A program made the position numbers and the translations under genes. Positions 2,595 through 63,348 of a DNA stretch of 64,000 nt are shown here, piece by piece (position 1 is the stretch's first letter; every line of letters starts with the position of its first letter). The DNA comes from Candidatus Magasanikiibacteriota bacterium. Lineage in GTDB: Bacteria; Patescibacteriota; Patescibacteriia; Magasanikbacterales; UBA922. The notes under the pieces are model-generated. The model had not been told where the DNA came from. It saw only the letters and a program-made list of their open reading frames with translations, and ran no database searches. The DNA is taken from contig DOMK01000018.1 in assembly GCA_003510435.1 (NCBI GenBank), forward strand, positions 14,121-78,120. The letters are read 5' to 3'.

Positions 2595-5500
2595 CTATTC
2601 GTGATACCCCGTACCCGCTGGAATCCGACGACCGATAATAACATTTTCTTTCAAGCCTTCTAAATAATCTACTTTGCCAGTAATGGCCGCATTGATAAGA
2701 ACACGAGCGGTCTCTTGGAATGAAGCAGCCGACAAGAAGCTCTGAGTAGAAAGAGAAACTTTGGAAATACCAAGGAATAATTCTCTACCAGCTGATTCTT
2801 TTTTACTATCTTTCAAGGCATCAGTATTAGCGTTCATAAATTGCGTTCGTTCCACTGTCTCACCTGGCAATAAATCTGTCTCACCTGGATCTTCAATATA
2901 AATACGAGAGAACATTTGCTTGATAATAATTTCTACATGTTTATCATTCAAACGTTGACCTTGAGAAGCATAGATTTCTTGAATCTCTTTCAAAATATAA
3001 TTTTGTACTGCATACCGGCCTTTTAACTCATACAACTCTTGCAAATTAATTGCTCCTTCAGTCAACTGGTCTCCTTTCTTTACTTCATCACCAGTCTTTG
3101 CCCACAATTTATAACCCATTGGAGTAATATATTCTTTGGTGTGTCTGCCTTCATAAGTCAGGACTAATTGCTTATCATCCATATGCACTGTGCCTTCGTA
3201 CTTGGCTCTAAATTCCTCACCAGAACTACCCCGAACAATCAAAATATCATCTTGATTTACTTTTTGACCATCCACGACTTGCACTTCATCTTCAGATTTT
3301 ACTTTTACTTTTATTTCATCCACGCCTTCAAAATGAACTTTGACAATTTTTTGTCCTCTCCGACCTTCAAAAATCTTACGGCCAGTTGGGCTAGTAATTA
3401 CTTTACCATCAGCATCTTCAATTTCTACCGTACCATCGACTTCAGACAAGACGGCTTTTCTTTTTGGATTGCGCGCTTCAAACAATTCTTCTACTCTTGG
3501 TAAACCCTGAGTAATATCTCCACCACCAGCGACCCCACCAAGGTGGAAGGTTCTCATGGTAAGTTGGGTACCAGGTTCACCAATGGATTGAGCAGCGATA
3601 ATACCAACGGCTGTACCTTTTTTGACCAATTCACGATTGGACAAATCATAACCATAACATTTTACGCACACGCCTTTTGGTAATTTGCATTTCAATACTG
3701 AACGGACATGAACTTCTTCGACTTCAGTTTCTTCAATTTGACGTACATGTTCTGGAGAAATTACTTCACCCGCTTTTACCAAAACTTTACCTTTGACATC
3801 TTTTACATCTGATAGAACAAACCGACCAAGCACGCGTTCAGAAATCTTTTCACCCATATCAATTGATTGTTCTTTGGTAAACACTTCACCACTATTATCA
3901 CCACAATCTTCATCGAGAACAACCACATCTTGGGCTACATCTACCAAACGACGAGTGAGATAACCAGCGTTGGCCGTACGAAGAGCCGTATCAGACAAAC
4001 CTTTTCTGGTACCGTGAGAAGAGATAAAAAATTCTAGTACATCAAAGCCTTCTTTAAAGTTGCCTTTGACTGGCAATTCAATAATTTCTCCGGATGGTGA
4101 AGCTACCAAGCCTTTCATACCAATCACCTGACCCAGCTGACCCCAAGAACCGCGGGCGCCAGAATCAATCATGGCAAAGACTGAACCATCTTTATTCAAA
4201 GCTTCTTTGTTGAAAGACACAACTTTGTCTTTTACTTCAGTCCAAATTTCCAAAATTTTAGAATGTCTTTCACTATCAGTGAGTAAACCATCTTTATATT
4301 GATCCCAAACTTCTTCTACCCGGTCATCACCTTCAATCAAAATATTTTTCTTTTCGGCAATATGACCAAAGTTGTCCATGCCGAGTGAATAACCAGACTT
4401 GGTAACATATTTGAAACCTAATTTTTTAATTCTATCCAAAAATTTAGCTGTTTCTTCTTGACCATAAAATTCGAGCAAGAGCTTGATGATTTGGGCTAAG
4501 TGTTTTTTGGTAATAGTTTCATTATAATAAGCTAATTTTTCTGGCATGACTTCATTAAACAAAATTCTTCCTATTGAGGTTTCAATAATTGGCCCATCAC
4601 CTTCTGGAAATTTTGCTAAATCATCAAATCGAACTTTGATTCTTTCTTTCAAAGTAATCCGACGAACTTTGTAAGCAAAACGTGCTTCTTTTTCATTGGA
4701 GAAAAATTTCTTTACTTCTTTGGTATCATCTTCAGCGTATTTGGTTAGATAATAACAACCCAGAGCAATATCCTGTTGTGGAGTAGTCACTGGCGCACCT
4801 GTGGCCGGCTTCAATAAATTCTTTTCTGCGGCCATCAAATTTTCTGCTTCCCAACGAGCTTCATCAGTTAGAGGTAAATGAACAGCCATTTGGTCACCGT
4901 CAAAGTCAGCGTTGAAAGCTGGACAAACTAATGGGTGTAAGCGAATCGCTTTACCTTCTACCAATTGTGGTTTGAAAGCTTGGATACCAAGACGGTGCAA
5001 GGTTGGAGCACGGTTTAATAAGACACGACTCTTCTTGGTCATTTCTTCCAAAATATCCCAAACTTCTGGCGCATTGGTTTCAATAAACCGAGAAGCACTC
5101 CTTACATTATGAGCCAATTCGCGTTTTATAATTTCGGCCATAACAAATGGTTTGAATAATTCCAAAGCCATTCTTTTTGGGATACCACATTCGCTAATGG
5201 CCAAATTTGGTCCAACCACGATTACCGAACGACCAGAATAATCTACCCGTTTACCAAGTAAGTTTTGACGGAAACGACCTTGCTTACCTTTCAAAATATC
5301 AGCCAAAGAACGTAACTGTCTTTTTTGACCTGTCGAAGCGGTCACAGTCTTAGAAGCGCGAGCATTGTTATCAATCAAAGCATCTACCGCTTCTTGCAAC
5401 ATACGCTTTTCATTACGACAAATAACTTCTGGAGCATTCAGTTCAATCAACCTTTTCAAACGATTATTACGATTGATCACTCGGCGATACAAATCATTCA

Positions 5501-6519: not shown

Positions 6520-9500
6520 TTAATCTTCAATTTCAGTTTTTACATCATCACTATTTGATTCAGTAAAATTTCCTTCTTGCAATTCACGTTCTTTTCTTCT
6601 TGTTTCCCTTACTTCCTCAGCTGGCAAATAAACTCCACTATCATCTTTGGATAACAATTCTACATCTAGACCTAGGCCTTTCATTTCTCTAACTAATACA
6701 TTGAATGATTCTGGAATATTTACCTTGCTAATCTTTTCACCTTTAATAATGGCTTCATAAGCTTTTGATCTACCTGGTACATCATCAGATTTGATGGTCA
6801 AAATCTCTTGTAGAGTATGGGAAGCACCATAAGCTTCTAAGGCCCAAACTTCCATTTCTCCAAATCTCTGACCACCCGATTGAGCTTTACCACCCAAAGG
6901 CTGTTGTGTAATCAAACTGTATGGACCAATTGATCTCTGATGAATTTTATCTTCCACCATATGATTCAATTTGAGCATGTAGTTGTAACCTACAGTAGTT
7001 TTGTGATCAAATGGTTCACCAGTTCTACCATCGCATAATTGTAATTGACCATCAACTGGAAAACCAGCCCGTTCCAATTCAGTTTTAATTTGTTCTTCTG
7101 TAATACCATTTAGAACTGGAGTGGCAGATTTGTAGCCCAAAGAATTGGCCGCTAAACCTAGGTGGGTTTCTAACAATTGTCCCAGGTTCATACGAGAGAT
7201 AACGCCAAGTGGAGATAAAATAATATCGACTGGCGTACCATCTTCCAAAAATGGCATGTCTTCGACTGGCACTACGCGAGAAATAACACCTTTGTTACCA
7301 TGACGACCAGCCATCTTATCACCCGGTTGCATTTTTCTCATGTCAGCGACTGTCACCTGGACTTGTTTGCTCACGCCTGGCTGTAATTTGTCACCAACTT
7401 CGGCCGAGAAAACTTTGATATCAATTACTTTACCATGTTCACCATGTTCTAGATAAAGAGAAGAATCACGCACATCACGCGCTTTTTCTCCAAAGATGGC
7501 ACGTAATAATCTTTCTTCAGCTGACAATTCAGTTTCACCTTTTGGGGTAATCTTACCAACCAAAATGTCACCAGACTGGACTTCAGCCCCAATTCGAACG
7601 ACACCTTCAGCATCAAGATTTTTTAATTTTTCTTCACTCACGTTTGGAATATCCGCGGTCACAACTTCTGGTCCTAATTTGGTATCACGGACATCGGTGG
7701 CATAATCTTCAATATGAATAGAAGTGAATTTATCTTTTTGGACTAAACGTTCAGAAATAATTACCGCATCTTCATAGTTGAAACCATCCCAAACCATATA
7801 GGCTACCAAAACGTTTTGACCTAGAGCTAATTCACCACCTTGAGTAGATGGACCATCAGCCAACACATCACCTTTTTTCACCTTATCATGTAGATTGGTA
7901 ATTATTCTTTGATTAATTGAACTGGAAGCATTGGATCTAACAAATTTATTCAAATTATATTTAAAGACTTTACCTTTTTTGGTTGTTAATTCAATTCTTC
8001 CGCCATCAACATAAGTAATTTCGCCATCATCATCAGCCAAAATAACATGTCCACTATTTTCTGCCGCGGCTTTTTCTACCCCCGTACCCACCAATGGTGA
8101 ATCTGGAGTAATACAAGGCACAGCTTGTCTTTGCATGTTTGTACCCATGAGAGCCCGAGTCGCGTCATCATGTTCTAGAAAAGGAATCAAGCTGGTCGCA
8201 ATGCTCAAAATCTGATTGGAAGCCACATCAATGTAGTCAATCTTATGAGTCTTGGACATGCCTGGTTCACCTTTAATACGAGCCGGCACTCTTTCGGCTA
8301 ACAAGAAACCATCTTTATCTACTTCCACAGTCGAAGAAGCAGTCACAGTTCTTTCTTCTTCAAAAGAATTGAGATAAACAATTTCATTGGTCACGCGCGG
8401 TTTGACAGCAATAGTTTTCAAATCCTTTTTACCTTCTAATTTTTTTGCAATCTCTTTGGTAATTTTCTCTCCCGCATCTACCGCCCCTTTTATATCTTCG
8501 CGAGCAATTTCACCTTCAGTAAAACGAGCTTCATTTGGTACATCATGGTTCACTTTACGATATGGTGTTTCCAAGAAACCAAAAGTGTTTACTTTTGAAT
8601 GGCTAGCTAAGTGACCAACCAAACCAATGTTTGGACCTTCTGGCGTAGCAATCGGACAGATTCTACCATAGTGAGTAGTGTGAACGTCACGAACTTCAAA
8701 ACCAGCCCGATCACGAGACAAACCTCCCGGTCCAAGAGCGGAGATTCTACGTTTGTGTTCCAATTCAGCCAAAGGATTTACTTGGTCCATGAATTGAGAC
8801 AATTGTGAGCTCATGAAAAATTCATGCACCGCCCCAATTACCGGACGAGCATTAATAAGCTTATTAGGTGATAGACCTTCTAATTCATATGTACTCATTC
8901 TATCTTTCACAATTCTTTCCATACGAGCCATACCAACGCGGAAACGATTCTGGACCAATTCACCCACGGCGCGAATCCGACGATTACCCAAATGATCAAT
9001 ATCATCTGGCTCTTCTTGAGTGACATTTAATCTCACGACTTCTTTTAAAACTAATAATAATTTTTCTGGACTTAAGATCCGATTTTCTTTTTGATCAAAA
9101 TCTTCCCGTTTCAAATTCAATTGAAATTTGATATTGAATTTGTAAATACCAACCTTGCCTAAATCATAACGATCAAAATTAAAAAACATGGCATGAACCA
9201 AACTCTTGGCATTGTCCGATGTAGCCAAATCTCCTGGACGAATTCTTTTATAAACTTCAATCAAACCTTCATCTTCATTGGCCGCCGCATCTTTCTTGAT
9301 CGTATTTTCTACAAAATCAATATTAGGATGATTGTTAACATCAGTAAATAATTTTTTAATATCATCATCAGTAGAATAACCAAAAGCCCGGAGTAATGAA
9401 GTGGCCGCCACTTTACGTTTGCGATCTACTTTTATCCAGACCACATTGTTTTGGTCAGTTTCAATTTCAATCCAAGCCCCACGGTTAGGAATAATCTTGG

Positions 9501-36790: not shown

Positions 36791-37855
36791 ATGAAAAACT
36801 TAGTTAACAACAACATACTAAAGATGCAACCCTACAACCCGCCCATCGAAGGCCGGGCGGGTTTGGGTTATCTTTTATTAGATTTTAATGAAAGAACTGA
36901 ACCTTATGACAAATATATTAACCAATATCTAAAAAAATGCTTAAACAATAATACTCTAAATATTTACCCAGCTTATAAAAATATTTATGAAAAAATTGCC
37001 AAATATGCTGGTGTTAAAAAAGACAATATTTTAATCACAAATGGTTCTGGCCAAGCCATTGAAATAATTTTTAAAACTTTTACCCAAAAAAATGATCAAG
37101 TTATTATCCCCTCACCCAGTTTTGCTAGATTTTATCAAAATGCAAACATAAGTAATAATATTATCATCACACCACAATACAATAAAAGTGATCTTTCTTT
37201 TCCATTAAATAAAGTACTTAAAAATATAACTTCTAAAACAAAAATGATTATTATTTGTAATCCCAATAATCCCACTGGCACCAGTCTATCACTAATAGAA
37301 ATTGAGCAAATATTACAAAAAACTAAAAATTCTCTTGTCTATATTGATGAAGCATATTTTGAATTTTCAAATATTACGGCGGTGCCATTATTGAAAAAAT
37401 ATCCAAACTTAGTAATTAGTCGAACATTTTCCAAAGCCTTTGGCTTAGCTTCATTACGGATTGGTTATATTATCGCCAACGAAAAACTAATAAAAGAAAT
37501 GCAAAAAGTTCGTGGGCCTTATGATATTAATACTCTGGGTATCAAAGCAGTTGAATATGTATTAAAAAATATTTCTGGATTAAAAAATTATGTAGATGAA
37601 GTGATGACAAAATCCAAACCAATTTTAGAAAAATATTTAACACAAAAAAATATTAAATATTATAATAGCAATGCTAATTTTGTTTTGATCAAACCCACAA
37701 ATCCTAAAAAAGTTTTTAATCATCTCAAAACTAATAACATTCTAACCCGTCCTCGTATTGACTCAGTTATTGAAGGCACAATTCGGATAACTATTGGTAC
37801 AATCAAACAAACTAAAAAACTAATAGCTATACTAGATAAATTAAATATATGTTAA
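36791..37855 (+). CDS. hisC: Histidinol-phosphate aminotransferase
   Basis: Class II aminotransferase; PLP lysine context SRTFSKAFGLASLRIGY. Confidence 0.85.
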   Translation: MKNLVNNNILKMQPYNPPIEGRAGLGYLLLDFNERTEPYDKYINQYLKKCLNNNTLNIYPAYKNIYEKIAKYAGVKKDNILITNGSGQAIEIIFKTFTQKNDQVIIPSPSFARFYQNANISNNIIITPQYNKSDLSFPLNKVLKNITSKTKMIIICNPNNPTGTSLSLIEIEQILQKTKNSLVYIDEAYFEFSNITAVPLLKKYPNLVISRTFSKAFGLASLRIGYIIANEKLIKEMQKVRGPYDINTLGIKAVEYVLKNISGLKNYVDEVMTKSKPILEKYLTQKNIKYYNSNANFVLIKPTNPKKVFNHLKTNNILTRPRIDSVIEGTIRITIGTIKQTKKLIAILDKLNIC

Positions 37856-38895
37856 ACAAATACGCTTTTATAGACAGGGATGGTGTACTAATCTTTGAAC
37901 CTGAGGATACCAAACAAATTGATTCTCTAAATAAACTAAAGATATTAGACGGCGTTATTCCTGTTTTAAAACAATTAATAGTTGATGATTATAAATTAAT
38001 TATGGTTTCTAACCAAGATGGTTTGGGTACAACCAGTTTTCCCCGAACTAATTTTGATATTGTCCAAGATAAATTATTAGATAATTTGAAAAAAAAAGGG
38101 ATAAAATTTTATAGAATATTTATCTGTCCACATCTGCCAAGTAATAATTGTTCTTGTCGAAAACCAGAGACTGGTTTAATTAAAGAATTTTTATTAGTAA
38201 AACCAATGGATAAAGCCAGATCTTTTATGATTGGTGATAGGGATTCTGATAAACAATTTGCCAAAAATCTTGGTATAAAATTTTATCAAACCAATACTAA
38301 TTCAAGTTTTCCTCGTTTAGCAGAACTAGAACGTAATACAAATGAAACCAAAATTTTTACTCAACTAAATCTAGATGGAATCGGTAATTATAATATTGAT
38401 ACTGGTATAAAATTTTTTGATCACATGCTAGAACAAATTGCTAAAAATTCTTTAATTGATATAGACATAAAATGCACTGGTGATTTGTCTGTAGATGAAC
38501 ACCACACCGTAGAAGACGTAGGTTTAGCTTTGGGAGCTACAATAAACAAAGCTCTAACCAATAAAAAAGGTATAAACCGTTATGGGTTTTTGTTACCCAT
38601 GGATGAAGCCTTGGCAGAAGTGGCCATTGATTTAAGTGGACGACCATTTCTAGTCTGGAATGCAAAATTCAAACGCGAAAAAATTGGGGACATACCAACT
38701 GAATTATTTGAAGATTTTTTTCGTGCTCTTAGCAACAATCTACAAGCTAACATTCACATCAACATCCGTTATGGTCGAAATGAACACCACATGGCTGAAG
38801 CTATTTTCAAGGCTATTGGCAGAACCTTGCGCCAAGCAATTGAAAATGACCCTAGACAAAAAAACTTAATCACTAGTACCAAAGGAATCTTATGA
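37849..38895 (+). CDS. hisB: Bifunctional histidinol-phosphatase / imidazoleglycerol-phosphate dehydratase
   Basis: N-terminal HAD motif FIDRDGVL..MVSNQDGLG..GDRDSD; C-terminal IGPD motifs (DEHHTVEDVG, GRNEHHMAEAIFKA). Confidence 0.9.
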   Translation: MLNKYAFIDRDGVLIFEPEDTKQIDSLNKLKILDGVIPVLKQLIVDDYKLIMVSNQDGLGTTSFPRTNFDIVQDKLLDNLKKKGIKFYRIFICPHLPSNNCSCRKPETGLIKEFLLVKPMDKARSFMIGDRDSDKQFAKNLGIKFYQTNTNSSFPRLAELERNTNETKIFTQLNLDGIGNYNIDTGIKFFDHMLEQIAKNSLIDIDIKCTGDLSVDEHHTVEDVGLALGATINKALTNKKGINRYGFLLPMDEALAEVAIDLSGRPFLVWNAKFKREKIGDIPTELFEDFFRALSNNLQANIHINIRYGRNEHHMAEAIFKAIGRTLRQAIENDPRQKNLITSTKGIL

Positions 38896-39479
38896 TCGCT
38901 ATTATAAATTATCAAGCTGGAAATATTACCTCAGTGGCCAATGCTCTTAATAAATTAGGCGTAGATTATGTTATCACCGCTGACAAAGAAATAATTAGAA
39001 AAGCTGACAAAATAATTTTTCCAGGCCAAGGCAGAGCGGGCCAGGCTATTAAGGAACTTAAAAAAGCGGGACTGATTGATCTGATTAAAAACACTTCAGT
39101 CCCCTTTCTTGGTATTTGTTTGGGATTACAAATCTTAGCCACGTCTTCTGATGAAGACAATACCAGATGCTTAGGTATAATTCCTGGCACAGTAAAAAAA
39201 TTCTCTTCAGAATTGAAAATACCACAAATTGGTTGGAATAAAGTAAACCTAACCAAACGATCGTTCCTAACGCAAGATATACCAGACAGTACTTATTTTT
39301 ATTTTGTCCACTCTTATTATCTCATAACTGAAAACAAATATATTATTGGTAAAACCAACTATGATATTGAATATCCAACCATTATAAATAAAAATAATTT
39401 TTATGCCACTCAATTTCACCCAGAAAAATCTGGTGACGTTGGTTTAAAATTATTAAATAATTTCTGCAAGTTATGTTAG
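38892..39479 (+). CDS. hisH: Imidazole glycerol phosphate synthase, glutaminase subunit
   Basis: Class I glutamine amidotransferase; GICLGLQ catalytic Cys, QFHPEKS. Confidence 0.85.
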   Translation: MIAIINYQAGNITSVANALNKLGVDYVITADKEIIRKADKIIFPGQGRAGQAIKELKKAGLIDLIKNTSVPFLGICLGLQILATSSDEDNTRCLGIIPGTVKKFSSELKIPQIGWNKVNLTKRSFLTQDIPDSTYFYFVHSYYLITENKYIIGKTNYDIEYPTIINKNNFYATQFHPEKSGDVGLKLLNNFCKLC

Positions 39480-40948
39480 TTATTCCCGCAATTGATATTC
39501 TAAATGGTAAATGTGTCCGTTTGACCCAGGGTAATTTTAGTTTGGCTAAAAAATATTCTAATAATCCCGTACAAATGGCTAAAAGGTTTACCCAAGCTGG
39601 TGCCACTCGTATACACATTGTAGACCTAGACGGCGCTAAATCTGGTAAACCAATAAACTTTACTCTTATTAAAAAAACTAGACAATCAACTCCGGCTATT
39701 CTTGAAATTGGTGGCGGAATAAGAAATTTAAAAACTGCCAAAACTTACTTAGATCTTGGTATTGATAAAATTATTATTGGCACCAGTGTAATTAAAAATT
39801 TAAAATTAATAAAAAATCTTATTGATAAATACGGCAGTCAAAGAATAATTATCGGCTTGGACTTAAATAAAGATAAAATTGTCATTAACGGCTGGAAAAA
39901 AACTAGTCAACAAAATTATTTATCACTGGCAAAAAAACTAAAGAAAATTGGCACTAGAGAAATAATTTGCACTGATATTTCCCGTGACGGAATGCTTTCC
40001 AATCCAAATTTAGAACCAATTAAAAAATTACAGGCTCTAGGCTTCTGGGTAATAATCTCTGGTGGTATAGCTAATATAAATACAATAAAAAAACTACAAA
40101 CCCAAAAATTCTATGGTGCAATTTTAGGTAAAGCCTTGTATGAAAATAAAATCAACTTTAAACAAGCAATTAAATTAACCAAAACAACCAATAATTTAAC
40201 CAAACGAATTATTCCTTGTTTAGATGTTAAAAATAATCAAGTGGTAAAAGGTATAAAATTCAAAAAACTTACTTTTGCTGGTGATCCAGCTGAACTTGGC
40301 AAAAAATATGCCGAGGCTGGCGCGGATGAATTGGTTTTTTTAGACATCACGGCCACCTTAGAAAAAAGAAAAACCCTATGCTCTATGGTACAAAAAATCG
40401 CTAACAATATTTTTATTCCTTTTACCGTGGGTGGTGGAATTAAATCAGTCAAAGATATTAGCGCAGTATTAAAAGCCGGAGCTGACAAAATTGCTATAAA
40501 TACGGCTGGAGTTTTAAATCCCAAATTGATTAAACAAGCGAGTAAAAAATTTGGTTCACAATGCATTGTCGTAGCGATTGATACTAAAAAAGTTAATAAT
40601 GATTATTTTGTCTATATTAATAGTGGTAAAACAAAAACCAAACTAAAAGTTCTGGATTGGGTAAGGCAAGTAGAAAAACTGGGGGCAGGAGAAATATTAT
40701 TAACTGCCATTGACCGCGATGGTACCAAATCTGGCTTTGATAACAATCTACTCCGACAAATTTGCTCAACTGTTAATATTCCAATAATTGCTTCTGGTGG
40801 CGCTGGTAAATTGGCTGACTTTAAAAATGCCATAATAAAAGGTGGAGCTGACGCTGTCTTAGCTGCCAGTATTTTTCACTACAATAAAAAAACCATAAAT
40901 ACTCTAAAAAAATATTTAAAGAAAAATAATATTAATGTCAGAATATGA
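39473..40948 (+). CDS. hisAF: HisA::HisF fusion (ProFAR isomerase fused to imidazole glycerol phosphate synthase cyclase subunit)
   Basis: Residues 1-240: HisA ([15 protein letters not shown]...[10 protein letters not shown]). Residues 245-491: HisF ([33 protein letters not shown]...[15 protein letters not shown]). One 491-aa ORF. Confidence 0.9.
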
Positions 40949-41550
40949 AACTAATTCCTACAATTATCCAAGATGAAAGTACTGACGTGGTGCTGATGTT
41001 AGGTTATATGAATGATGAGTCACTCAAAAAAACTAAAAAGACAAAAAAAGTCTGGTTTTATAGTCGCTCAAAAAAACGTCTCTGGCTTAAAGGTGAAACC
41101 AGTAAAAATTATTTATTTGTAAAAAGCATAGACTTTGATTGTGACAAAGATACCATTCTTATTAAAGTAAAACCCGCTGGACCAACCTGCCACACTGGTA
41201 ATTATTCTTGTTTTAAAAAAAAGCCTGAGATAAATCCCTTGGTTGAATTGTTTTCCACAATAGAAGATAGAAAAAAGAATCTACCTAAAAATTCTTACAC
41301 CACCAGTTTATTTAAAGGTGGTATAAATAAAATTATTGGTAAAGTAATGGAAGAAACTACTGAGGTAATTAATGCCTCTATCCGAGAAACAAAAAAACGT
41401 TTAATAGAAGAAACGGTCGATTTACTTTACCACCTTTTTGTTTTATTAAGTAAAAAAAATATTAAATTGGAAGATGTTTTTAAGGAGATTGAAAAACGCA
41501 GAAACAAAAAATCCCGGGCTTCATCTGCGACTACGCCCGGCAAGCCCTAA
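40945..41550 (+). CDS. hisI: Bifunctional phosphoribosyl-AMP cyclohydrolase / phosphoribosyl-ATP pyrophosphatase
   Basis: HisI motif CHTGNYSCF followed by a HisE-like C-terminus. The last ~13 codons are supplied by repeat element R1. Confidence 0.85.
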
Positions 41551-41607
41551 CATCTTTTCTAAAAAAAGACTGACCTGCCCAGCGTAGCTTTAGCGAAGCC
41601 TGGGTTT
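41507..41607 (+). repeat. ~100-nt structured repeat element R1 (second copy R2 at 53926-54035)
   Basis: Conserved blocks gactacgcccggcaagc and tgcccagcgtagctttagcgaRgcYgggtt around a variable loop; outer stem cccgggcttc/gaagcctggg. Overlaps the hisI 3' end. Confidence 0.6.
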
Positions 41608-41705
41608 CTTGCCTTGTGTTTGCGCGCAAGCTTGGGTGCTGGAGTTGGTCCGCGGCTCCAGCACCGCGGGTGACATTCCTATGCCACCATACCCCCTTCT
41701 TGTTG

Positions 41706-42329
41706 TTAGATTGCCAGACACTCTGCGACGATATAGCGATTCATCACCGCCATACCATCGACCATCTCACCCTCCTCAATTCTGTGTGTCTCTACAATCT
41801 TAAAACTACCCCAAAGAACATAATCACGCAAAGAATTCTCTGAAAAGTAGAAATCTTCACGCTTACCCCCGTTACCATTCCCATTTAAGATTTTCACGGG
41901 AAATGGCTCATCACCTTCGGCCACTCTAACAGCCAAAAGCAATGGAGCTCCAAGACACATAACTCTACGCAATTCTCGTACAGATGCCATAATCTCTTGT
42001 ACACTATGCATGTTATGCAATACTCTCCAAGAGAGTACTGCACTAAAATAATCATCTGGAAAAGGAAGCTGAGAAAATCTTTGTACCTCAACAAAATTTT
42101 CCAAACCAATAGTAGCTTGACGAGCCCATGGTCCGTCTACTGCGACAACTTCTCTACCGAGAGATCGCAGAACTGATAGATTTCGCCCTCTCCATGCTCC
42201 CCAGTCCAGAACTGGGTTGCGTTCTGAACTCGTAAGGTGGTGGAGCAGGAATTCTTGACCGGAACCAGCCACGAACCCACTAGGTTCATAGCCGATTTCA
42301 TACTTACTCCCTCCGTGCCACTTATCCAT
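41706..42329 (-). CDS. Class I SAM-dependent methyltransferase-like protein (GC-rich island)
   Basis: Degenerate motif I VLDWGAWRGRN, acidic post-I VAVD, motif II-like region. About 48% GC. Strong Shine-Dalgarno AAGGGAGGAAAAAG. Confidence 0.5.
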   Translation of the reverse strand: MDKWHGGSKYEIGYEPSGFVAGSGQEFLLHHLTSSERNPVLDWGAWRGRNLSVLRSLGREVVAVDGPWARQATIGLENFVEVQRFSQLPFPDDYFSAVLSWRVLHNMHSVQEIMASVRELRRVMCLGAPLLLAVRVAEGDEPFPVKILNGNGNGGKREDFYFSENSLRDYVLWGSFKIVETHRIEEGEMVDGMAVMNRYIVAECLAI

Positions 42330-42414: not shown

Positions 42415-44199
42415 CTAACTATATTTTTTTCGCAAAATTTTTCCTGCGCCTACTTCATTTTTTAATTTTAAGTAAGCTTCATCCAACGGCACATTAGCTT
42501 GCGAACCAGGAGCAAAACCACAATCCGGATTTAAAATAATTCTGTTCGGTGCCACATACTGCAAAGCTTTTTCTACTCGTGTCACAATTTCTTCTGGTGT
42601 ATCAATGTGTTCAAATCTGCACTCCACACAACCAAGACCTACTTTAAATTTTTCTGGTAAATTTTTTAAGGCGCTAAAATCACCGGCAACTGGGATGCTA
42701 TATTCCAACACAAATTGATCTACATCAATGGCGCTAATGGCAGAAATAATAGCCTCATAGCCACCTTTACCAATCCAACCTTGTCTACCTTTATTGCGCC
42801 GACATAAATGTAATGCTGTTTCTATTCCGTCAATTCCTTTCACAACTTCATTAACTACTTGACAGGCATAATTTAACTCTTTTTTCGGGTCAGAAAATTG
42901 AGTTCGTAATTCTTTATCAACAAATAGACAAATATGAGGATCATCAATTTGCACAATATTAGCACCAGCCTCCCGTAATAAAATAATTTCATTGCGAAGT
43001 ATAGGAATAAGGGCTTCCACAAAAGCCTCACGAGTTGGATAGGCTTTTATAGATTTTTTTTCATCCCACAATCGTTGACCAAGAAGATAAGGCGACGGCA
43101 GGCACACTTTAATTTTTTTAATAGTATGTAATTTCAAAAATTTTGCTTCACGTGCAAAAAACCCAGGTTTATCATAAACCAATTTTTCTTCCACCGTATG
43201 CCATGAACGGCCATCACTTGAATTAAAATAATGTTTAAAACCAGAAGCTATATTGGCTATTACTCCCACATAAGATTTGCGTCGCCATTCTCCATCAGAA
43301 ATTACATCCAAACCAGCCTGCTCTTGCAGTGCTATGGCATAAGCCACTGCCTTATCCAAAATAGGAGAAAAAGGATCACCCTCATTTAGAATAACATCTT
43401 GAACAAATTGTGGTCGCGGCAAACTACCTACAACACTTGCTGGAAATAGCTGTGAGGCAGGTTTCCAAAATTTTTGAGCATAAGCATAATCTTCCAGAGT
43501 ATCAATTTCAATATAGTCACCATGAGTAGTAACAAAATTAATTTTTACACCTTGCTGAACCAAATAATTTAAATAATGTAAAAGATAAGCACGATTTAGC
43601 GGAATGTTTTTTTCAAACTGAAAATTTTTTGGAAGGTTACAAAAATATTCTTTAAATATTTTAGCACCGGCTCGAGAAAATTTAGCCAAGCCAATAAATT
43701 CTCCTGTTGCCAAATCATCTGGAATTGTGCGGCTAAGAGTAGTAATTAGTTCGCCATCCGCTGTTACTTTTTCTGCATCAATGGAGGGGTGAAGACTACG
43801 ATGTACATACCGAGCACGCCAATCAGTATCTACTGCTATGGTAATATCCGCCGGGCTAGCCAATAGTTTTTTAACAATCTCTGGTTTATACAGAATATCC
43901 GAATATGAGCAGATAAAACCATCGCCCATATCATTTATCGCGTAAAAGAGCGATTTTAAAATATTATTATTTTCCCAATTAGTATTATGTCGAAAAGTAA
44001 AATAAGGATATTGTTTTCTTACAACGTCAATTAAATAACCCCCAATAAAAACAATATCCCGTAGTTCTTTTGCTTGATGCGCTTCCAAAATCCAATCTAA
44101 TATCCTTTTATTGTGAACACGAGTAAAAGTTTTTGGTTCAGTATTAGTTAGATGCTCCAACCGCTTACCACGGCCAGCACCTATAATAATTGTTTTCAT
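42415..44199 (-). CDS. Fusion protein: N-terminal sugar-phosphate nucleotidyltransferase plus C-terminal MetE-like (cobalamin-independent methionine synthase family) Zn-dependent domain
   Basis: N-terminus MKTIIIGAGRGKRLEHLT (G-rich NTP-transferase loop). C-terminus VGSLPRP, VQIDDPHI, LHLCRRN, LEYSIP, NPDCGF align with the MetE C-terminal IGSFPQT, IQIDE, HMCY, ENS, NPDCGL Zn-site motifs. Confidence 0.75.
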   Translation of the reverse strand: MKTIIIGAGRGKRLEHLTNTEPKTFTRVHNKRILDWILEAHQAKELRDIVFIGGYLIDVVRKQYPYFTFRHNTNWENNNILKSLFYAINDMGDGFICSYSDILYKPEIVKKLLASPADITIAVDTDWRARYVHRSLHPSIDAEKVTADGELITTLSRTIPDDLATGEFIGLAKFSRAGAKIFKEYFCNLPKNFQFEKNIPLNRAYLLHYLNYLVQQGVKINFVTTHGDYIEIDTLEDYAYAQKFWKPASQLFPASVVGSLPRPQFVQDVILNEGDPFSPILDKAVAYAIALQEQAGLDVISDGEWRRKSYVGVIANIASGFKHYFNSSDGRSWHTVEEKLVYDKPGFFAREAKFLKLHTIKKIKVCLPSPYLLGQRLWDEKKSIKAYPTREAFVEALIPILRNEIILLREAGANIVQIDDPHICLFVDKELRTQFSDPKKELNYACQVVNEVVKGIDGIETALHLCRRNKGRQGWIGKGGYEAIISAISAIDVDQFVLEYSIPVAGDFSALKNLPEKFKVGLGCVECRFEHIDTPEEIVTRVEKALQYVAPNRIILNPDCGFAPGSQANVPLDEAYLKLKNEVGAGKILRKKYS

Positions 44200-44216: not shown

Positions 44217-44311
44217 TAAAAAACCTTCGCTCTGTTAAGCGAAGGTGGATAAAATTAAGAATAAACTTAATCAGGCCTTCGCTTAAAAGACATCATCATC
44301 GCCATCATCAT
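44217..44311 (-). promoter_or_regulatory. Candidate leader-peptide transcription attenuator (antiterminator/terminator alternative)
   Basis: Segment A AAGCGAAGG (44284-44276, inside the leader ORF) and segment C AGCGAAGG (44231-44224) are both perfectly complementary to segment B CCTTCGCTT (44245-44237). B:C is an 8-bp stem with a 6-nt loop followed by 6-7 U, ending about 20 nt before the downstream ATG. Confidence 0.5.
44267..44311 (-). CDS. Candidate leader peptide MMMAMMMSFKRRPD (6 Met in the first 7 codons)
   Basis: ATG ATG ATG GCG ATG ATG ATG TCT TTT AAG CGA AGG CCT GAT TAA on the minus strand. Confidence 0.35.
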   Translation of the reverse strand: MMMAMMMSFKRRPD

Positions 44312-44535
44312 ATTTAGTTTGCAATAAAATTCCATAAAAAAACTTCTAACCATAGGTAGAAGTAGTATATAAAACATCTTCCCCTTATGGGTTGGAATTA
44401 CCACCTTGTCTTAAAGATAGGTTGGTAGAGAGTCATTGGGCCAATTCCCTCGTCTCTTCTTGATATAAATTAATTGTCTGTATTTAGATTATCACCACAT
44501 CATTAAATCGTCAAACAACGACTGTGGATAACTAA

Positions 44536-44958
44536 CTACTTTATTTTTAACATCTCAATCACCTGCCAATGATCAAACGCCATATCATCTGATTTAAGTT
44601 CATCTATATTTTTTATTATTAATTCTTTAGCATCACTATCTGCTTTACAATCTTTGAGCATCTCTTCTGAAGGCAAATTTATTTTATAAACAATAGAAAT
44701 TCTTCTTCCTGGTCTTGGATCACGATTCAACCCATCTAAAATAATTAAAAAAACTAAATCTTTAGGATCGATAATTAATCCAGTTTCTTCTTGCAGTTCC
44801 CGAGCACAAGCATGTCTGATATCAATATCATCTAGATCAACATGTCCACCAGGAAAAGCAAATTTCTCCATGAACGGTTCTTTGGCACGCTTAATTAATA
44901 ATATTTTTTCATTATTGATTGTCACTACCGGATCTACTGTAAGTAATATTTCATTCAT
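44536..44958 (-). CDS. Nudix hydrolase
   Basis: Nudix box GGHVDLDDIDIRHACARELQEETGL. Confidence 0.85.
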   Translation of the reverse strand: MNEILLTVDPVVTINNEKILLIKRAKEPFMEKFAFPGGHVDLDDIDIRHACARELQEETGLIIDPKDLVFLIILDGLNRDPRPGRRISIVYKINLPSEEMLKDCKADSDAKELIIKNIDELKSDDMAFDHWQVIEMLKIK

Positions 44959-56637: not shown

Positions 56638-57282
56638 TTATTTTCTCCACTTCACTTCCTTTACTCCACTTTTCAAATTTAACCATCGACCCAAAACAAA
56701 TAACAAATCACTCAAACGATTTAGATATTTCATTATATTCTGGTCAACCCCAGAAGTAGAACTTCGTTCACTACGGGGCAAGCTCTTGTATTTCAAACTC
56801 AAATCAATTACCCGTCTTTCTGCTCGCCGACAAATCGCCCGCACATAAAAACTCTTGGCTGATTCTTCACTTCCACCTGGTAAAATAAAATTAGTCAGCT
56901 TGGGTAAATCTTTTTCCATTTTATCAATCCACTTCTCAAGTTTTTTAACTTCTGCACTTTTTAATTTTGGTATAGTTTTTATTTTAGCTTGGACAGACGC
57001 TAGGTTTGCACCGATAACAAATAGACAATGTTGAATATTAATCAATTTCTTTTTTACTTCCGTGTAATCCTTTCCTTCCGTACCCTCCCGGCCTGCAACG
57101 CTATCGCTTGCATTGCGGGCAGGCGTGTCACCGTCAATCTCTTCAATCAAAATTCCCAAAAAAGCATTGAGTTCATCCACTTCGCCGATTGCTTCCATCT
57201 CCAAACACGACTTGGAAACTCGTTTCCCGCCAAGCATACTGGTTTGTCCTGAGTCGCCGGTTTTTGTATAGATTTTTGGCAT
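56638..57282 (-). CDS. ATP:cob(I)alamin adenosyltransferase, PduO type, with an in-frame GC-rich insertion
   Basis: MPKIYTKTGDSGQTSMLGGKRVSKSCLEMEAIGEVDELNAFLG matches the PduO-type N-terminus. Extra segment EIDGDTPARNASDSVAGREGTEGK is encoded by a GC-rich imperfect palindrome (57086-57125). Confidence 0.85.
   Translation of the reverse strand: MPKIYTKTGDSGQTSMLGGKRVSKSCLEMEAIGEVDELNAFLGILIEEIDGDTPARNASDSVAGREGTEGKDYTEVKKKLINIQHCLFVIGANLASVQAKIKTIPKLKSAEVKKLEKWIDKMEKDLPKLTNFILPGGSEESAKSFYVRAICRRAERRVIDLSLKYKSLPRSERSSTSGVDQNIMKYLNRLSDLLFVLGRWLNLKSGVKEVKWRK
57086..57125. repeat. GC-rich imperfect palindrome inserted in frame in the PduO gene
   Basis: tcccggcctgcaacgctatcgcttgcattgcgggcaggcg; shares attgcgggcag with 34819-34829. 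Confidence 0.4.
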
Positions 57283-59760: not shown

Positions 59761-59790
59761 TGTGTTACGTGATATGTGTCTCGTGTTTTA
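59761..59790 (+). repeat. Interspersed repeat copy (tgttacgtgatatgtgtctcgtgtt)
   Basis: Exact 25-nt reverse-complement match to 22785-22809. Confidence 0.6.
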
Positions 59791-62700
59791 TGAACACCCA
59801 AGCGACTCCCCACAATTCAAACACTTATAACACGCCCCATTCCTCACAGTCACATGCCCACAAGTAGGACAAGCCGGCGCATCCCCCATCATATTTTTCA
59901 AAGCTTCATCAGAGGCATTGAGTGGTTTATTTCCCAAACTTGGTAAAACTTCTTGTTTTTCTGCGAGCATAACTTCTTCACCATCTTCCATTTCTATTTT
60001 GGTCTCAACCTCTACTTTGGTTTCTAGTGTCATGGTTTCTTGGGCTGGACTATGTTCGGCTAGTTTGGCCAAATTTTCAAATTTATTTTTTTGAATTCCT
60101 TTTGGTGGCACTTGGACAAAATCTGTTCTACCCAGATATTCCATACCCAACACACGGAAAACAAAATCAATAATAGAATTGCAAGACTTGATATTGGGAT
60201 GATCAGTAAATCCGGCCGGAGCAAAATTGGTAAACAAGAAATTTTCTACATATTTTTCTAATGGCACACCGTATTGCAAACCCATAGAGACTGATATCGC
60301 AAACATGTTGAGAAGGGATCTAACTGTTGCACCCTCCTTATACATATCAATAAAAATCTCAGCTACTTTTCCATCTGGATATTCTCCAGTACGGAGCCAA
60401 ATTTGTTGATTACCAACTTTGGCCGCTACTGTAATACCACTCCGTTTGGCTGGAAGTCTTCTTTTTTCACCATGCAGATAAACCCGGCGTTCAGCCACCT
60501 GACCATCACGAGTATATGATTCCATTGGCGTATGAATACCAACATGATTAGAAAGAATTTCACTCGCTTGTCTTACCGCATCTTCTACATTATCAGTGTT
60601 AATCATTTTTGAGACTTGCAATACTTCTTCTTCTGTAATGACTGGCTTTCTCTCTTCAGCCATTACTTTCACCTCAATCTCCGTGTCCTCCTTACTTTCC
60701 GTGTCCTCCGTGTTTTTCTTATCACCTTTATTTTTGGAACTGGTTGAAAGTGGTTGACTTAGTTTGGATCCATCACGATATAGAGCCACCGCTTTTAGAC
60801 CAAGACGCCAGGATTCTTCATAAGCAAATTTTACATCTTCCAATGTGGCATCATTGGGCATGTTGATAGTTTTGGAAATTGCCCCTGATAAAAATGGCTG
60901 TACCGCCGACATCATTCTTACATGACCCATATAATGGATATATCGTTTACCTTTCTTGCCATTTTTATTGGCCGTATCAAACACGGGATAATCTTCTATT
61001 TTCAAATGTGGCGCGCCTTCAATTGTCATGGTACCGCACACATATTGGTTAGCCTCTTCAATTTCACTTTCAGAAAAACCAAGGGCAATAAGCATACTAA
61101 AATTTGGATCATTGTATTGACTTGGGGCAAATCCAACTCGCTTCATACAATCTTCACCGAGTGTCCAAACATTAAAAGCAAATTTAATTTCAAATGCACC
61201 TTTGAGAGCTTTGTTAACCGCTTCAATATCTTCATCATTAAAACCTTTGGCCTTTAAACTAGCTTCGTTAACATGGGGAGCATTTTTAATATCAGCTGTT
61301 CCACGCATGTAGTTAATAACATCAATTACTTCTTGTTCATTATATTTTAGATTTTTTAAAGCCAAAGGTACGGCTTCATTGGCAATGCGGAAATATCCCC
61401 CACCAGCCAATTTTTTAAATTTCACCAAAGCAAAATCTGGTTCTACACCAGTTGTGGCACAGTCCATAAGCAAACCAATTGTACCAGTTGGTGCCAGCAA
61501 TGTAGTTTGGGCATTTCTATAACCATATTTTTCTCCCATAGCCAAAGCCTCATTCCAACTTTCCCTGGCTGCAGCGACTAAATAGGCGGGAGCAAATTCT
61601 GGATTAATGCCTTTTGGTTTAATTACCATTTTTTCATATTCACTTTCTTCAGCATTGAAAGCTGCTCGGCGATGATTACGAATTACGCGCAACATTTCAG
61701 ACCGATTAAATTCAAATTTTGGAAATGTTCCCAAGAGTCTAGCCAATTCTGCGCTAGTCTTATAACTCTCGGCTGTCATAAGAGCAGTCACTGAAGCCGT
61801 AAAAGCATAAGCATCTTCTGATTCATAAGGAATGCCACTCATCATTAATACTGAACCAACATTGGCATAACCCAAACCAAGAGTACGAAAATCATAACTA
61901 CCTTGGGCAATTTCTTTGCTTGGGAATTGAGCCATGAGAATACTAATTTCCAAAACTGTTGTCACTACTCTGGTCGCATGTCTAAAATCTTCTACTAAAA
62001 ATTCTTTGGTATCAGTATTAAAAAATTTTACAAGGTTGAATGATGCCAAATTGCAAGCTGTGTTATCAATAAACATGTATTCACTGCAAGGATTGGAAGC
62101 ATTAATACGACCAGACTCTGGACAAGTATGCCAGTCATTGATTGTCCCATCATACTGTACACCTGGATCAGCACACGCCCAAGCCGCAAAAGCAATTTGA
62201 TCCCACAGAGCTTGCGCTTTCAAAATCTTGCAAGTACTACCATCTACGCGCCAAGTCAAATTCCATGAACCATCATTTTTTACGGCTTCCATAAACTTAT
62301 GAGCCACGCGCACGGAATTATTAGAATTTTGTCCAGACACAGTACCATAGGCTTCACCTTCATAATCAGCGGAATAGCCAGCCGCAATCAAAGCGGCGAC
62401 TTTCTTTTCTTCATTCACTTTCCAATTTATAAATTGTTCAATATCTGGGTGATCAATATCCAATGTCACCATCTTGGCTGCGCGCCGAGTCGTACCACCG
62501 GACTTTATTGCCCCAGCGGCTCGGTCGCCAATTCTAAGCCAGCTCATGAGACCAGAAGATTTGCCACCACCAGACAATGGTTCACCGTTTCCCCGCAGTC
62601 CAGAAAAATTAGTCCCTGTCCCAGAACCATATTTAAATAATCTGGCTTCCCGTACCCAGAGATCCATAATACCACCTTCATTTACCAAGTCATCGGAAAC

Positions 62701-63348
62701 TGATTGGATAAAACAAGCATGTGGCTGAGGATGAGTATAAGCATCTTTTGATCTAGTCATCACCCCAGTATCTGGATCAACGTAATAATGACCTTGGGAA
62801 CTACTATTAATACCATAAGCCCAATTCAAACCTGTGTTGAACCATTGGGGTGAGTTTGGTGCCATCATTTGTTTTAGAAGCATGACCACGAGCTCATCAT
62901 AAAAAATCTCTGCATCTTCCTGGCTAGCAAAATAGCCATACTTTTCTCCCCAATAACGCCAAGTACCAGCCAGGCGATGCATGGTTTGTTTGACGCTGGT
63001 TTCGGGCCCAAGCACGGGCGACCCATCAGCGTTCAACTTTGACATACCATTGTTATCATATTGAGGTACGCCAGTTTTACGAAAATATTTTTGCGCAATA
63101 ATATCAGTCGCCACTTGTGACCAACCAGCCGGAATTTCAATATCCTTCATTTCAAACACGACTGTACCATCTGGTTCGCGAATTACTGATTGGCGTTTTT
63201 CATAAACTACACTATCAAACGGACTCTCATTGTCTTTACTAAAAACCCGCTTAAAACGCAAACCAAATTCAGGATTATATTTGAATGCCACATCAAGTTC
63301 TTGCCCAAAGTGGATACCTTGGATCAATTTGGAATCAGTTGGTCCCAT
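59788..63348 (-). CDS. nrdJ: Class II (adenosylcobalamin-dependent) ribonucleotide reductase
   Basis: 1186 aa; conserved RNR barrel blocks (NPCSE, ISKTINMP); C-terminal Zn-ribbon tail CPTCG...CYKCLNCG typical of NrdJ. Confidence 0.9.
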   Translation of the reverse strand: MGPTDSKLIQGIHFGQELDVAFKYNPEFGLRFKRVFSKDNESPFDSVVYEKRQSVIREPDGTVVFEMKDIEIPAGWSQVATDIIAQKYFRKTGVPQYDNNGMSKLNADGSPVLGPETSVKQTMHRLAGTWRYWGEKYGYFASQEDAEIFYDELVVMLLKQMMAPNSPQWFNTGLNWAYGINSSSQGHYYVDPDTGVMTRSKDAYTHPQPHACFIQSVSDDLVNEGGIMDLWVREARLFKYGSGTGTNFSGLRGNGEPLSGGGKSSGLMSWLRIGDRAAGAIKSGGTTRRAAKMVTLDIDHPDIEQFINWKVNEEKKVAALIAAGYSADYEGEAYGTVSGQNSNNSVRVAHKFMEAVKNDGSWNLTWRVDGSTCKILKAQALWDQIAFAAWACADPGVQYDGTINDWHTCPESGRINASNPCSEYMFIDNTACNLASFNLVKFFNTDTKEFLVEDFRHATRVVTTVLEISILMAQFPSKEIAQGSYDFRTLGLGYANVGSVLMMSGIPYESEDAYAFTASVTALMTAESYKTSAELARLLGTFPKFEFNRSEMLRVIRNHRRAAFNAEESEYEKMVIKPKGINPEFAPAYLVAAARESWNEALAMGEKYGYRNAQTTLLAPTGTIGLLMDCATTGVEPDFALVKFKKLAGGGYFRIANEAVPLALKNLKYNEQEVIDVINYMRGTADIKNAPHVNEASLKAKGFNDEDIEAVNKALKGAFEIKFAFNVWTLGEDCMKRVGFAPSQYNDPNFSMLIALGFSESEIEEANQYVCGTMTIEGAPHLKIEDYPVFDTANKNGKKGKRYIHYMGHVRMMSAVQPFLSGAISKTINMPNDATLEDVKFAYEESWRLGLKAVALYRDGSKLSQPLSTSSKNKGDKKNTEDTESKEDTEIEVKVMAEERKPVITEEEVLQVSKMINTDNVEDAVRQASEILSNHVGIHTPMESYTRDGQVAERRVYLHGEKRRLPAKRSGITVAAKVGNQQIWLRTGEYPDGKVAEIFIDMYKEGATVRSLLNMFAISVSMGLQYGVPLEKYVENFLFTNFAPAGFTDHPNIKSCNSIIDFVFRVLGMEYLGRTDFVQVPPKGIQKNKFENLAKLAEHSPAQETMTLETKVEVETKIEMEDGEEVMLAEKQEVLPSLGNKPLNASDEALKNMMGDAPACPTCGHVTVRNGACYKCLNCGESLGCS

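Follow-up and report, generated by a model that had tools for sequence, protein, structure and literature searches.

The window analysed here is a stretch of 64,000 nucleotides from a Candidatus Magasanikiibacteriota bacterium (assembly GCA_003510435.1, contig DOMK01000018.1, positions 14,121 to 78,120), and the gene in question lies on its reverse strand at 42415..44199. The gene is a single open reading frame (ORF) with an ATG start and zero internal stops, and it encodes a 594-aa protein in which a putative cytidylyltransferase is joined to a core-MetE domain, as judged from the ORF call, Pfam and NCBIfam searches, and full-length homologs. Residues 1–246 (43462..44199) form a predicted nucleotidyltransferase domain of the LicC/PntC type (N domain), assigned from Protein Data Bank (PDB) matches, Foldseek, and alignment invariants. 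Residues ~250–594 (42418..43452) form a predicted MetE catalytic (β/α)8 barrel (C domain), assigned from Pfam, the PDB matches 1ypx and 3rpd, and an alignment with Escherichia coli MetE. On the same strand, 85 nt 3′ of the fusion, lies a gene for a 207-aa class I S-adenosylmethionine (SAM)-dependent methyltransferase (41706..42329; Pfam Methyltransf_11), and the 5′ leader combines a predicted SAM-I riboswitch with a predicted attenuator rich in Met codons. We present the N and C halves as a widespread, unstudied two-component methionine synthase candidate.

The fusion gene is real. An identical copy of its protein is found in an independent NCBI record of a Magasanikbacteria metagenome-assembled genome (MAG), and nine more clusters share the architecture at 72–81% identity, with lengths of 584–605 aa and an equal junction and linker. 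The initial annotation, made from the letters of the window, had called the gene an unusual fusion and had raised an assembly or frameshift artefact as the objection to it. An assembly, frameshift, or gene-calling error that merged two adjacent genes would fit the halves being separate genes in most species, with very short or overlapping junctions, and one eukaryotic entry, P0023, does resemble a merged gene model from which the N-to-C stretch is absent. However, the ORF in the window is unbroken, and the nine clusters come from various samples. Because independent assemblies carry the equal fusion, we reject this explanation as hardly credible. P0023 itself (EukProt EP00913, Durusdinium trenchii P028352) is a 1036-aa protein composed of an organophosphate antiporter, N, and C, with a junction that is short by ~25 residues. 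This “MFS-N-C triple fusion” was not used as evidence, because its N–C segment is missing as if the spacer of a planctomycete-like operon had been spliced out; it may be a merged model of such an operon, present through either contamination or horizontal transfer. The AlphaFold model of the window protein has a mean pLDDT of 91.5, and a structure search with this model found no solved structure matching both halves.

The N domain falls just below the Pfam cut-offs for NTP_transf_3 (residues 4–139, 26.6 bits against 27) and NTP_transferase (20.9 bits against 21.2), and its NCBIfam matches to sugar- or alcohol-phosphate nucleotidyltransferases are also sub-threshold. A profile of the N family nevertheless matched the PDB sequences of LicC (1jyk, E 8e-15) and PntC (6pd1, E 3e-9). 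The closest solved structures to the N half are these two enzymes, which are a CTP:phosphocholine cytidylyltransferase and a phosphonate cytidylyltransferase, respectively, where CTP is cytidine triphosphate. The N half of the AlphaFold model superposes on LicC with a TM-score of 0.78 (Foldseek), in line with a Rossmann-like nucleotidyltransferase fold. An alignment of 29 diverse family members shows no variation in the signature G7-A-G-R-G11, R13, P22-K23, in the acidic residues D101 and E231/D233, or at the marked positions of a family-specific insert of ~40 residues, D124-T-D-W..R-Y..R..H-P..D-A-E-K144. By these features, the N domain belongs to the LicC/PntC-type nucleotidyltransferases, is a putative cytidylyltransferase, and has kept its catalytic residues, in agreement with the initial assignment of residues 1–240 to a nucleotidyltransferase. 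Its specificity for CTP and for a phosphocholine- or aminoethylphosphonate-type substrate is suggested by analogy, through indirect hints.

The C domain matches Pfam Meth_synt_2 (PF01717) over residues 280–583 (E 1.8e-22, 80.5 bits, cut-off 21). Among solved structures, the short MetE-like proteins 1ypx and 3rpd come nearest, ahead of the C-terminal barrels of full-length MetE. The C half superposes on 3rpd with a TM-score of 0.80, and the C-terminal barrels of MetE were likewise found by Foldseek. In NCBIfam, all matches are sub-threshold, and the best is the archaeal short methionine synthase (133 bits against a cut-off of 406). We aligned the C domain with E. coli MetE and read the active site against the Thermotoga maritima structure, which defines the Zn ligand set and the side chains that hold homocysteine (Pejchal and Ludwig, PMC539065). 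All four Zn ligands (H464, C466, E499, and C560) are kept and are invariant in the family alignment with E. coli MetE. The homocysteine ligands S259 (IGS→VGS), E304 (HGE→DGE), and D419 (IDEP→IDDP) are invariant as well. Since the catalytic, Zn, and homocysteine residues are conserved, both halves look catalytically competent, and the substrate of the C half is, on this reading of its residues, homocysteine or a very close analog. The cobalamin-independent methionine synthase fold and the complete Zn motifs proposed in the initial annotation are therefore borne out by the Pfam match, the superposition, and the alignment, and the conserved Ser, Glu, and Asp of the homocysteine site speak against a UroD/MetE superfamily member unrelated to homocysteine.

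The folate site, by contrast, is lost. Pfam found no match in the fusion protein to Meth_synt_1, the N-terminal folate-binding barrel. Among the folate determinants, DMV is replaced by KSY or xSY, and family members differ in the residue that stands in place of the pterin-binding Glu583. The score against the canonical folate-dependent MetE model TIGR01371 is 56 bits, with a cut-off of 930, which places the fusion outside that family. Features specific to the C family are DGEWRR, HLCRR (with Arg beside the Zn ligands), and a CLFVD insertion, and the Arg residues flanking the Zn ligands in the first two could bind a phosphorylated donor. The C domain is thus a predicted MetE-type Zn enzyme in which the homocysteine site is kept and the folate site is lost. 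It also lies outside the described core families MesA–MesD by NCBIfam scores and by characteristic partner genes. None of those four families has a nucleotidyltransferase partner (PMC7857596), and no DUF1852 (MesX), corrinoid, or corrinoid iron-sulfur protein (CoFeSP) gene occurs in any Pfam-annotated neighborhood of the module. MesD/MesX and the other Mes families were considered as precedents and rejected, because Price et al. mention no nucleotidyltransferase and DUF1852 is absent from the neighborhoods.

The leader of the gene carries two candidate control elements on the reverse strand. A SAM-I riboswitch aptamer is predicted at 44371..44469 (Rfam RF00162; 64.5 bits over the full model, for which the gathering score is 44.4). 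A terminator-like hairpin with one bulge and a U-run, at 44336..44362, starts 9 nt 3′ of the aptamer and would be its expression platform; it was recognized by sequence reading and folding and is unlisted by the strict pattern scan. Closer to the gene, a leader peptide ORF of 14 codons (MMMAMMMSFKRRPD and a stop, 44267..44311) has six Met in its first seven codons. It overlaps a three-segment attenuator at 44218..44284, which was found by a terminator scan (stem 44246..44223) and from alternative folds. Segment 1 (AAGCGAAGG, 44276–44284), inside the leader ORF, can pair with segment 2 (CCTTCGCTT, 44237–44245). Segment 2 can alternatively pair with segment 3 (AGCGAAGG, 44224–44231), and together with U6 (44218–44223) this pairing makes a strong terminator. 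The two alternative folds have energies of −18.1 and −15.1 kcal/mol, and the layout is that of a classical three-segment attenuator.

This arrangement recurs. The related fusion in locus L010 has the same order of riboswitch, terminator, Met leader, and terminator, and Met-run leader ORFs with terminators also precede the operon in L002, L004, L005, L007, and L013, regardless of gene order. Met-run leaders thus stand 5′ of the operon in all seven loci of the Candidate Phyla Radiation (CPR) that were examined (the window and six others), which cannot be chance. Because of the riboswitch and the conserved Met leaders, transcription is predicted to extend into the gene only under a double shortage, of SAM and of charged Met-tRNA. 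SAM binding by the riboswitch and ribosome-dependent control by the attenuator are predictions, and two-signal control of this type would be the signature of a methionine-supplying function. The initial annotation had noted a candidate Met leader and had tied the product to methionine supply; the leader is present, behind the riboswitch, and the tie is stronger than was stated, given that the leader holds both a riboswitch and a Met-codon peptide. A tandem of a SAM riboswitch and a Met-codon leader is rare and makes a clear case of two-signal control. To our knowledge, leader-peptide attenuation keyed to Met has rarely if ever been described.

The Met-run leaders read MMMAMMM, MMMTMM, MMMS, MMMGMM, and MMVAM, each followed by a terminator. 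They lie at 44218–44311 (reverse strand) in the window and at ~4360–4440 in L010, ~160–300 in L002, ~6560–6700 in L004, ~2680–2830 in L005, ~5090–5225 in L007, and ~7290–7420 in L013. Rfam reported no riboswitch at the gathering score in the other loci except L010, and a lenient E-value scan of six loci found none. In L012, a SAM-I-like core with an enlarged P2, followed by a terminator, was seen by eye at ~4430–4560 (forward strand) 5′ of a split N–C pair, and Rfam did not report it even at E 0.1. A small ORF combining a Zn-ribbon (CPYC...CRDC) with a helix-turn-helix, similar to InsA of IS1, is inserted on the forward strand between the Met leader with its terminator and the methyltransferase gene in L002 (~300–560) and L004 (~6700–6960).

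The fusion is a rare form of a common head-to-tail two-gene module. In a profile scan that took one genome per Genome Taxonomy Database (GTDB) species, N-type relatives were found in at least 547 species of about ten phyla, a figure that is a lower bound. Almost all of these are MAGs, mostly of uncultivated organisms, and they represent, among others, Planctomycetota, Latescibacterota, Poribacteria, Gemmatimonadota, Chloroflexota, Verrucomicrobiota, Myxococcota, Hydrogenedentota, and CPR. Carriers with cultured members include Planctomicrobium piriforme, Fuerstiella, Gemmatimonas, and Capsulimonas. Separate homologs of the halves are proteins of ~250 aa (N) and ~350 aa (C). A six-frame scan with hidden Markov models (HMMs) of the 80 species loci kept for a pair census placed a C-type gene directly 3′ of N on the same strand in 67 of them, mostly with a gap of 10–150 nt. 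Among the 13 loci without a downstream C, two end at contig ends and seven represent a Poribacteria-specific variant. The two genes are adjacent in the CPR contigs L005 and L007 and also in L009, which belongs to a 4.5-Mb genome. Same-ORF fusions are confined to the CPR clade P0001–P0010, to P0011/12/17/22, which are distant at 46–51% identity and have an archaeal-type context in L001, and to the likewise distant P0015. Since these are three separate clades, fusion arose at least three times. Same-ORF fusions suspected at L017, L031, L050, and L066 were rejected, as the six-frame HMM check resolved them into separate ORFs. The N and C halves are obligately linked, either as neighbors or as fusions. 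Full-text literature searches found no description of a nucleotidyltransferase–MetE module, and the two-gene module is apparently undescribed. What the initial annotation regarded as unusual thus holds for the fused form and fails for the halves, which as adjacent genes are widespread; its overall reading is supported, and the subject is larger than a single odd fusion. In the Poribacteria loci L039, L040, L043, L054, L062, L072, and L077 (8001–13200), N is followed by conserved proteins of 241, 801, and 338 aa, which may represent a different use of the same cytidylyltransferase.

The nature of the partner is indicated by three eukaryote-like fusions, P0247, P0251, and P0399, which were retrieved by an exhaustive search of cluster representatives. 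Each is one unbroken ORF, and the contigs that carry them have a eukaryote-like gene content. Their MetE-like parts belong to the same subfamily (45–47% identical, with the DGE-RR-SY and HLCRR motifs). P0247 joins this part to a domain resembling CCT (74 bits against CCT 3hl4), and P0251 and P0399 join it to tandem ECT-like domains (E 1e-29 to ECT 3elb). The CCT and ECT partners have the HxGH-type cytidylyltransferase fold, which is unrelated to LicC/PntC; the trait shared by LicC/PntC, CCT, and ECT is that they cytidylylate substrates of the phosphocholine or phosphoethanolamine type. From this non-homologous replacement of the partner, it follows that cytidylylation of such head groups is what the MetE-like enzyme needs. 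N-like domains with the family insert are also fused to class I methyltransferases, and one such fusion has a CDP-alcohol phosphotransferase (CDP, cytidine diphosphate) as a neighbor in a glycan cluster. These fusions and the glycan cluster suggest that the N-like clade handles methylated CDP-amino-alcohol head groups.

Neighboring genes add to this picture. An organophosphate:Pi antiporter of the GlpT/UhpC/PgtP family (TIGR00881, 211 bits) stands directly 5′ of N–C in 10 sampled species loci of Planctomycetota and Verrucomicrobiota, and one is also upstream of N–C in L093/L094, which fits an imported phosphate monoester as the substrate. The replaced partner, the antiporter, and the N-like fusions with methyltransferases are three independent lines that point the same way. 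The gene for methionyl-tRNA synthetase (MetRS) is immediately 3′ of the fusion in L002–L004. Archaeal-type loci have a divergent Lrp/AsnC regulator, and L001 has a CysK/CBS-like gene; like the MetRS gene, these tie the module to methionine. A second, distant short MetE-like gene (~345–394 aa; TTVGSYP...HPDCGF) was seen two genes 3′ of N–C in some loci, namely L019 (Planctomycetota), L020 (12133–13317) and L059 (13321–14373) (both Gemmatimonadota), L022 (unclassified), and L038 (Latescibacterota).

A class I methyltransferase gene, as in the window, accompanies the module in all CPR and archaeal-type loci, where it is first or last in the operon; it is the first gene after the Met leader in L002, L004, L005, and L013. 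These methyltransferases form at least three distant groups, with family A in L001, L090, L002, and L004, family B in the window, L007, L010, and L013, and a separate one in L005. Searches of the PDB and NCBIfam returned generic or far sub-threshold matches. In the window, the G+C content is 0.44–0.48 over the methyltransferase gene and its 3′ flank (41500–42250) and ~0.30–0.38 around it, which suggests a recent acquisition or an origin differing from the rest of the operon.

We propose that the N–C pair is probably a folate-independent homocysteine methyltransferase that depends on its cytidylyltransferase partner, and the fused gene, or the module as a whole, probably marks a new way of making methionine. 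As to the donor, our tentative preference is for a CMP-tagged (CMP, cytidine monophosphate) N-methylated amino-alcohol phosphate of the CDP-choline type, with the fusion acting as a self-contained methionine synthase that needs no folate. In this scheme, the N domain would join CTP and a small N-methylated amino-alcohol phosphate or phosphonate of the phosphocholine type into a CDP-choline-type conjugate. The CMP part would act as a binding handle in place of the missing folate-binding barrel of MetE and would present the quaternary (trimethyl)ammonium head to the Zn-bound homocysteine thiolate of the C domain. The methyl group would then pass to sulfur, as in betaine-homocysteine methyltransferase (BHMT), and yield methionine. 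The demethylated CDP-amino-alcohol could be released by pyrophosphate-driven reversal or by hydrolysis; with reversal, CTP would be catalytic. Transcription of the fusion would occur only when SAM and charged Met-tRNA are both low.

Several points weigh against this scheme. The choline-type donor is drawn by analogy from the relatives of the partner. Cytidylylation brings no chemical activation of the N-methyl group, so that it is needed only if the proposed handle role is right. Tyr99 is invariant where PntC has the amine-contacting Glu104 and LicC an Asp, and the N-domain insert is rich in Arg, Lys, and His; the head group may thus differ from choline. The partner in P0251 is nearer to ECT, an ethanolamine-phosphate enzyme, than to CCT, and CDP-ethanolamine has no methyl group. 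In the CPR and archaeal-type loci, a SAM-consuming methyltransferase is co-transcribed with the module and induced under methionine shortage, which is paradoxical, and a futile cycle would result if it made the methyl donor from SAM. It could possibly fill a methyl buffer when SAM is plentiful or serve an occasional reactivation chemistry, neither of which is supported here. In seven Poribacteria loci, the N gene has no adjacent C gene. The AlphaFold model has a pTM of 0.69, which bears on the geometry between the two active sites. Finally, the organism uses cobalamin, as the PduO and NrdJ genes of the window indicate.

Other chemistries have to be weighed against methyl transfer from a CDP-choline-type donor. 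The N domain could instead make the CDP ester of a phospho-alcohol such as phosphoethanolamine or O-phosphohomoserine, whose carbon would be attacked by the Zn-thiolate with displacement of CDP or CMP-phosphate. Homocysteine and a CDP-alcohol would then give S-alkyl-homocysteine, or methanethiol or sulfide and CDP-homoserine would give methionine or homocysteine. A cytidylylated phosphate is a good leaving group and would provide a chemical reason for the nucleotidyltransferase. MetE relatives alkylate thiols with non-methyl electrophiles, epoxyalkane:coenzyme M transferase being an example. The invariant Arg/Lys/His and Asp/Glu residues of the N insert suit an amino-acid-like phospho-substrate, the Joint Genome Institute (JGI) labels some family members “L-glutamine-phosphate cytidylyltransferase”, Arg residues stand beside the Zn ligands, and the ECT-like partner of P0251 points to methyl-free ethanolamine-phosphate. 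However, the homocysteine ligands are exactly those of MetE and fit homocysteine as the nucleophile, we know of no metabolite or pathway that needs S-aminoethyl-homocysteine, and the SAM and Met controls demand methionine as the product. The homoserine version leaves the CCT-, ECT-, and LicC-type partners, whose substrates are amino-alcohol phosphates, unexplained. Alkyl transfer of either kind is therefore regarded as unlikely. Still less favored is the idea that a cytidylyltransferase, with or without a methyltransferase, builds a methylated CDP-amino-alcohol for lipids or glycans at the cost of several SAM each, while the MetE-like part merely recycles the homocysteine with another donor. 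N-like domains fused to methyltransferases do occur among glycan-decoration genes that include a CDP-alcohol phosphotransferase, the module has class I methyltransferases beside it in CPR and archaeal-type loci, and relatives of LicC/PntC normally act in surface decoration (PMC6697681). Nonetheless, no CDP-alcohol phosphotransferase, LicD-type transferase, or glycosyltransferase lies beside any sampled N–C pair, and co-regulation alone hardly accounts for repeated physical fusion involving three different cytidylyltransferase types. Low SAM and Met should not specifically turn on a decoration pathway that consumes SAM, and the methyl donor would still be unexplained, the folate site being missing. 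We find such mere co-location improbable.

A corrinoid could also be the methyl source. The C domain would then be methylated by a methylcorrinoid, the N domain would be CobY-like (acting on cobinamide phosphate) or have a separate role, and the methyltransferase would re-methylate an inactivated corrinoid with SAM, as in MetH reactivation. The initial annotation had hinted at this and had listed a PduO adenosyltransferase and a B12-dependent NrdJ in the window. Both genes are indeed encoded, on the reverse strand, as a PduO-type cobalamin adenosyltransferase (56638–57282) and a class II B12-dependent ribonucleotide reductase NrdJ of 1186 aa with a TSCPD domain (59788–63348), so the organism uses adenosylcobalamin. 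CobY belongs to the same Pfam clan as the N domain. The best NCBIfam matches of the companion methyltransferases, although weak, are to the corrinoid protein-associated methyltransferase CpaM and to the DVU_1556 family, and the methyltransferase paradox would disappear if SAM were used catalytically and only on occasion. Moreover, characterized core methionine synthases take the methyl group from methylcobalamin in vitro (PMC7857596). On the other side, LicC and PntC are nearest to the N domain, with no CobY structure in the top 50 structural matches, and the CCT- and ECT-type partners of the eukaryote-like fusions are unconnected with corrinoids. The transporter upstream in Planctomycetota is an organophosphate antiporter and not a corrinoid importer. 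The Pfam-annotated neighborhoods contain no B12-binding domain, corrinoid protein, or methyltetrahydrofolate:corrinoid methyltransferase, Rfam scans of the window and loci found no cobalamin riboswitch, and the CpaM matches are far below the cut-off (33.6 against 180 bits). The hint at corrinoid as the methyl source thus finds no support, whereas the LicC/PntC-like partner and its replacement by CCT and ECT point to a CDP-choline-type donor, and we consider a corrinoid route quite unlikely.

Other genes of the window were read as follows. The riboswitch is directly preceded by a NUDIX hydrolase gene (44536–44958, reverse strand, 140 aa). In Planctomycetota, Gemmatimonadota, and Latescibacterota, NUDIX genes are near the pair as well, but they come from other subfamilies. 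A role as hydrolases of the CDP by-product is tempting, but the genes are not orthologous. We rejected NUDIX as a conserved fourth component, as the subfamilies are unrelated and the evidence, mostly synteny in Latescibacterota and Gemmatimonadota, is weak. Judged from the translations, the neighboring histidine operon seems to encode a single 491-aa protein (39473–40948, forward strand) whose halves resemble HisA and HisF, together with a 348-aa protein (37849–38895, forward strand) similar to a bifunctional HisB.

The module bears on two unsolved questions, namely what donates the methyl group to core methionine synthases and how CPR and DPANN organisms with reduced genomes keep the methionine/SAM cycle running. 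It also gives a directly testable hypothesis for the donor, namely CDP-choline-type compounds. The N–C module is possibly a fifth, previously unrecognized class of methionine synthase whose methyl groups come from head groups of the phospholipid type (phosphocholine or its phosphonate analogs), by way of a catalytic CMP handle that its own cytidylyltransferase attaches. If so, choline phosphate from membranes and hosts would have a direct link to the methionine/SAM cycle that needs neither folate nor B12, in CPR, DPANN-like archaea, Planctomycetota, Latescibacterota, Gemmatimonadota, Chloroflexota, and some algae. There would be a new route from choline phosphate or methylated phosphonates into one-carbon metabolism, and the nucleotide-handle principle, so far known from phosphonate biosynthesis, would apply more widely. 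Genome-based inference of B12 and folate dependence would also change; at present the genes of the module carry the labels “methionine synthase II family” and “choline kinase / NTP transferase”.

Comparison with known systems places each half of the module. LicC and PntC share the fold, the NTP-binding signature, and the size of the N domain, and they act on small cationic phospho- or phosphono-substrates, for which CMP is a handle for later tailoring (PMC6697681). In this group, including the PntC-AEPT and Fom1 fusions, a cytidylyltransferase is fused to the next enzyme of the pathway, as in the N–C fusion. The N clade differs in its own ~40-residue insert, in Tyr for the amine-contacting Glu or Asp, and in its partner, which is a thiol methyltransferase, with no head-group transferase seen nearby. 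The core and split synthases (MesA–D, the Pyrococcus-type split MetE, and the Dehalococcoides core-MetE) resemble the C domain in having one catalytic barrel to which no folate-binding barrel is fused, sites for Zn and homocysteine, and a methyl donor that is not a folate or comes from a separate source. The partner of the C domain is a cytidylyltransferase and not a Meth_synt_1 barrel, a corrinoid protein, or MesX/DUF1852, and this, together with the NCBIfam scores, sets it apart from MesA–D. BHMT and the bacterial Bmt provide the working analogy for the chemistry, as their methyl donor is a quaternary ammonium or sulfonium compound and the methyl group goes directly to the thiolate of homocysteine, activated by Zn (PMC12366255). 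As in our proposal, neither folate nor cobalamin is used by BHMT. However, BHMT belongs to Pfam S-methyl_trans and not to Meth_synt_2, uses free betaine or dimethylsulfoniopropionate (DMSP), and has neither a nucleotide handle nor a nucleotidyltransferase partner. The MetE-fusion of Phaeocystis antarctica (Rao et al. 2024, PMC10861871), which is widespread in plankton, carries a core MetE barrel in a multidomain protein for which an alternative donor has been proposed. Its partners are a polyketide synthase (PKS)/acyltransferase, a PP-binding domain, and a CzcO-type oxidoreductase, with no nucleotidyltransferase, and its donor is probably different; since the domains differ, we rejected it as a precedent. 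Finally, the MetRS of Mycoplasma penetrans (PMC13215547) is similar by description, in that a PntC-like nucleotidyltransferase is tied to the last methionine-forming step and to MetRS. Its methionine-forming domain, N-terminal like the nucleotidyltransferase, is an aminotransferase and not MetE-like, unlike that of the fusion, and the parallel extends to the loci L002–L004, in which MetRS directly follows the fusion.

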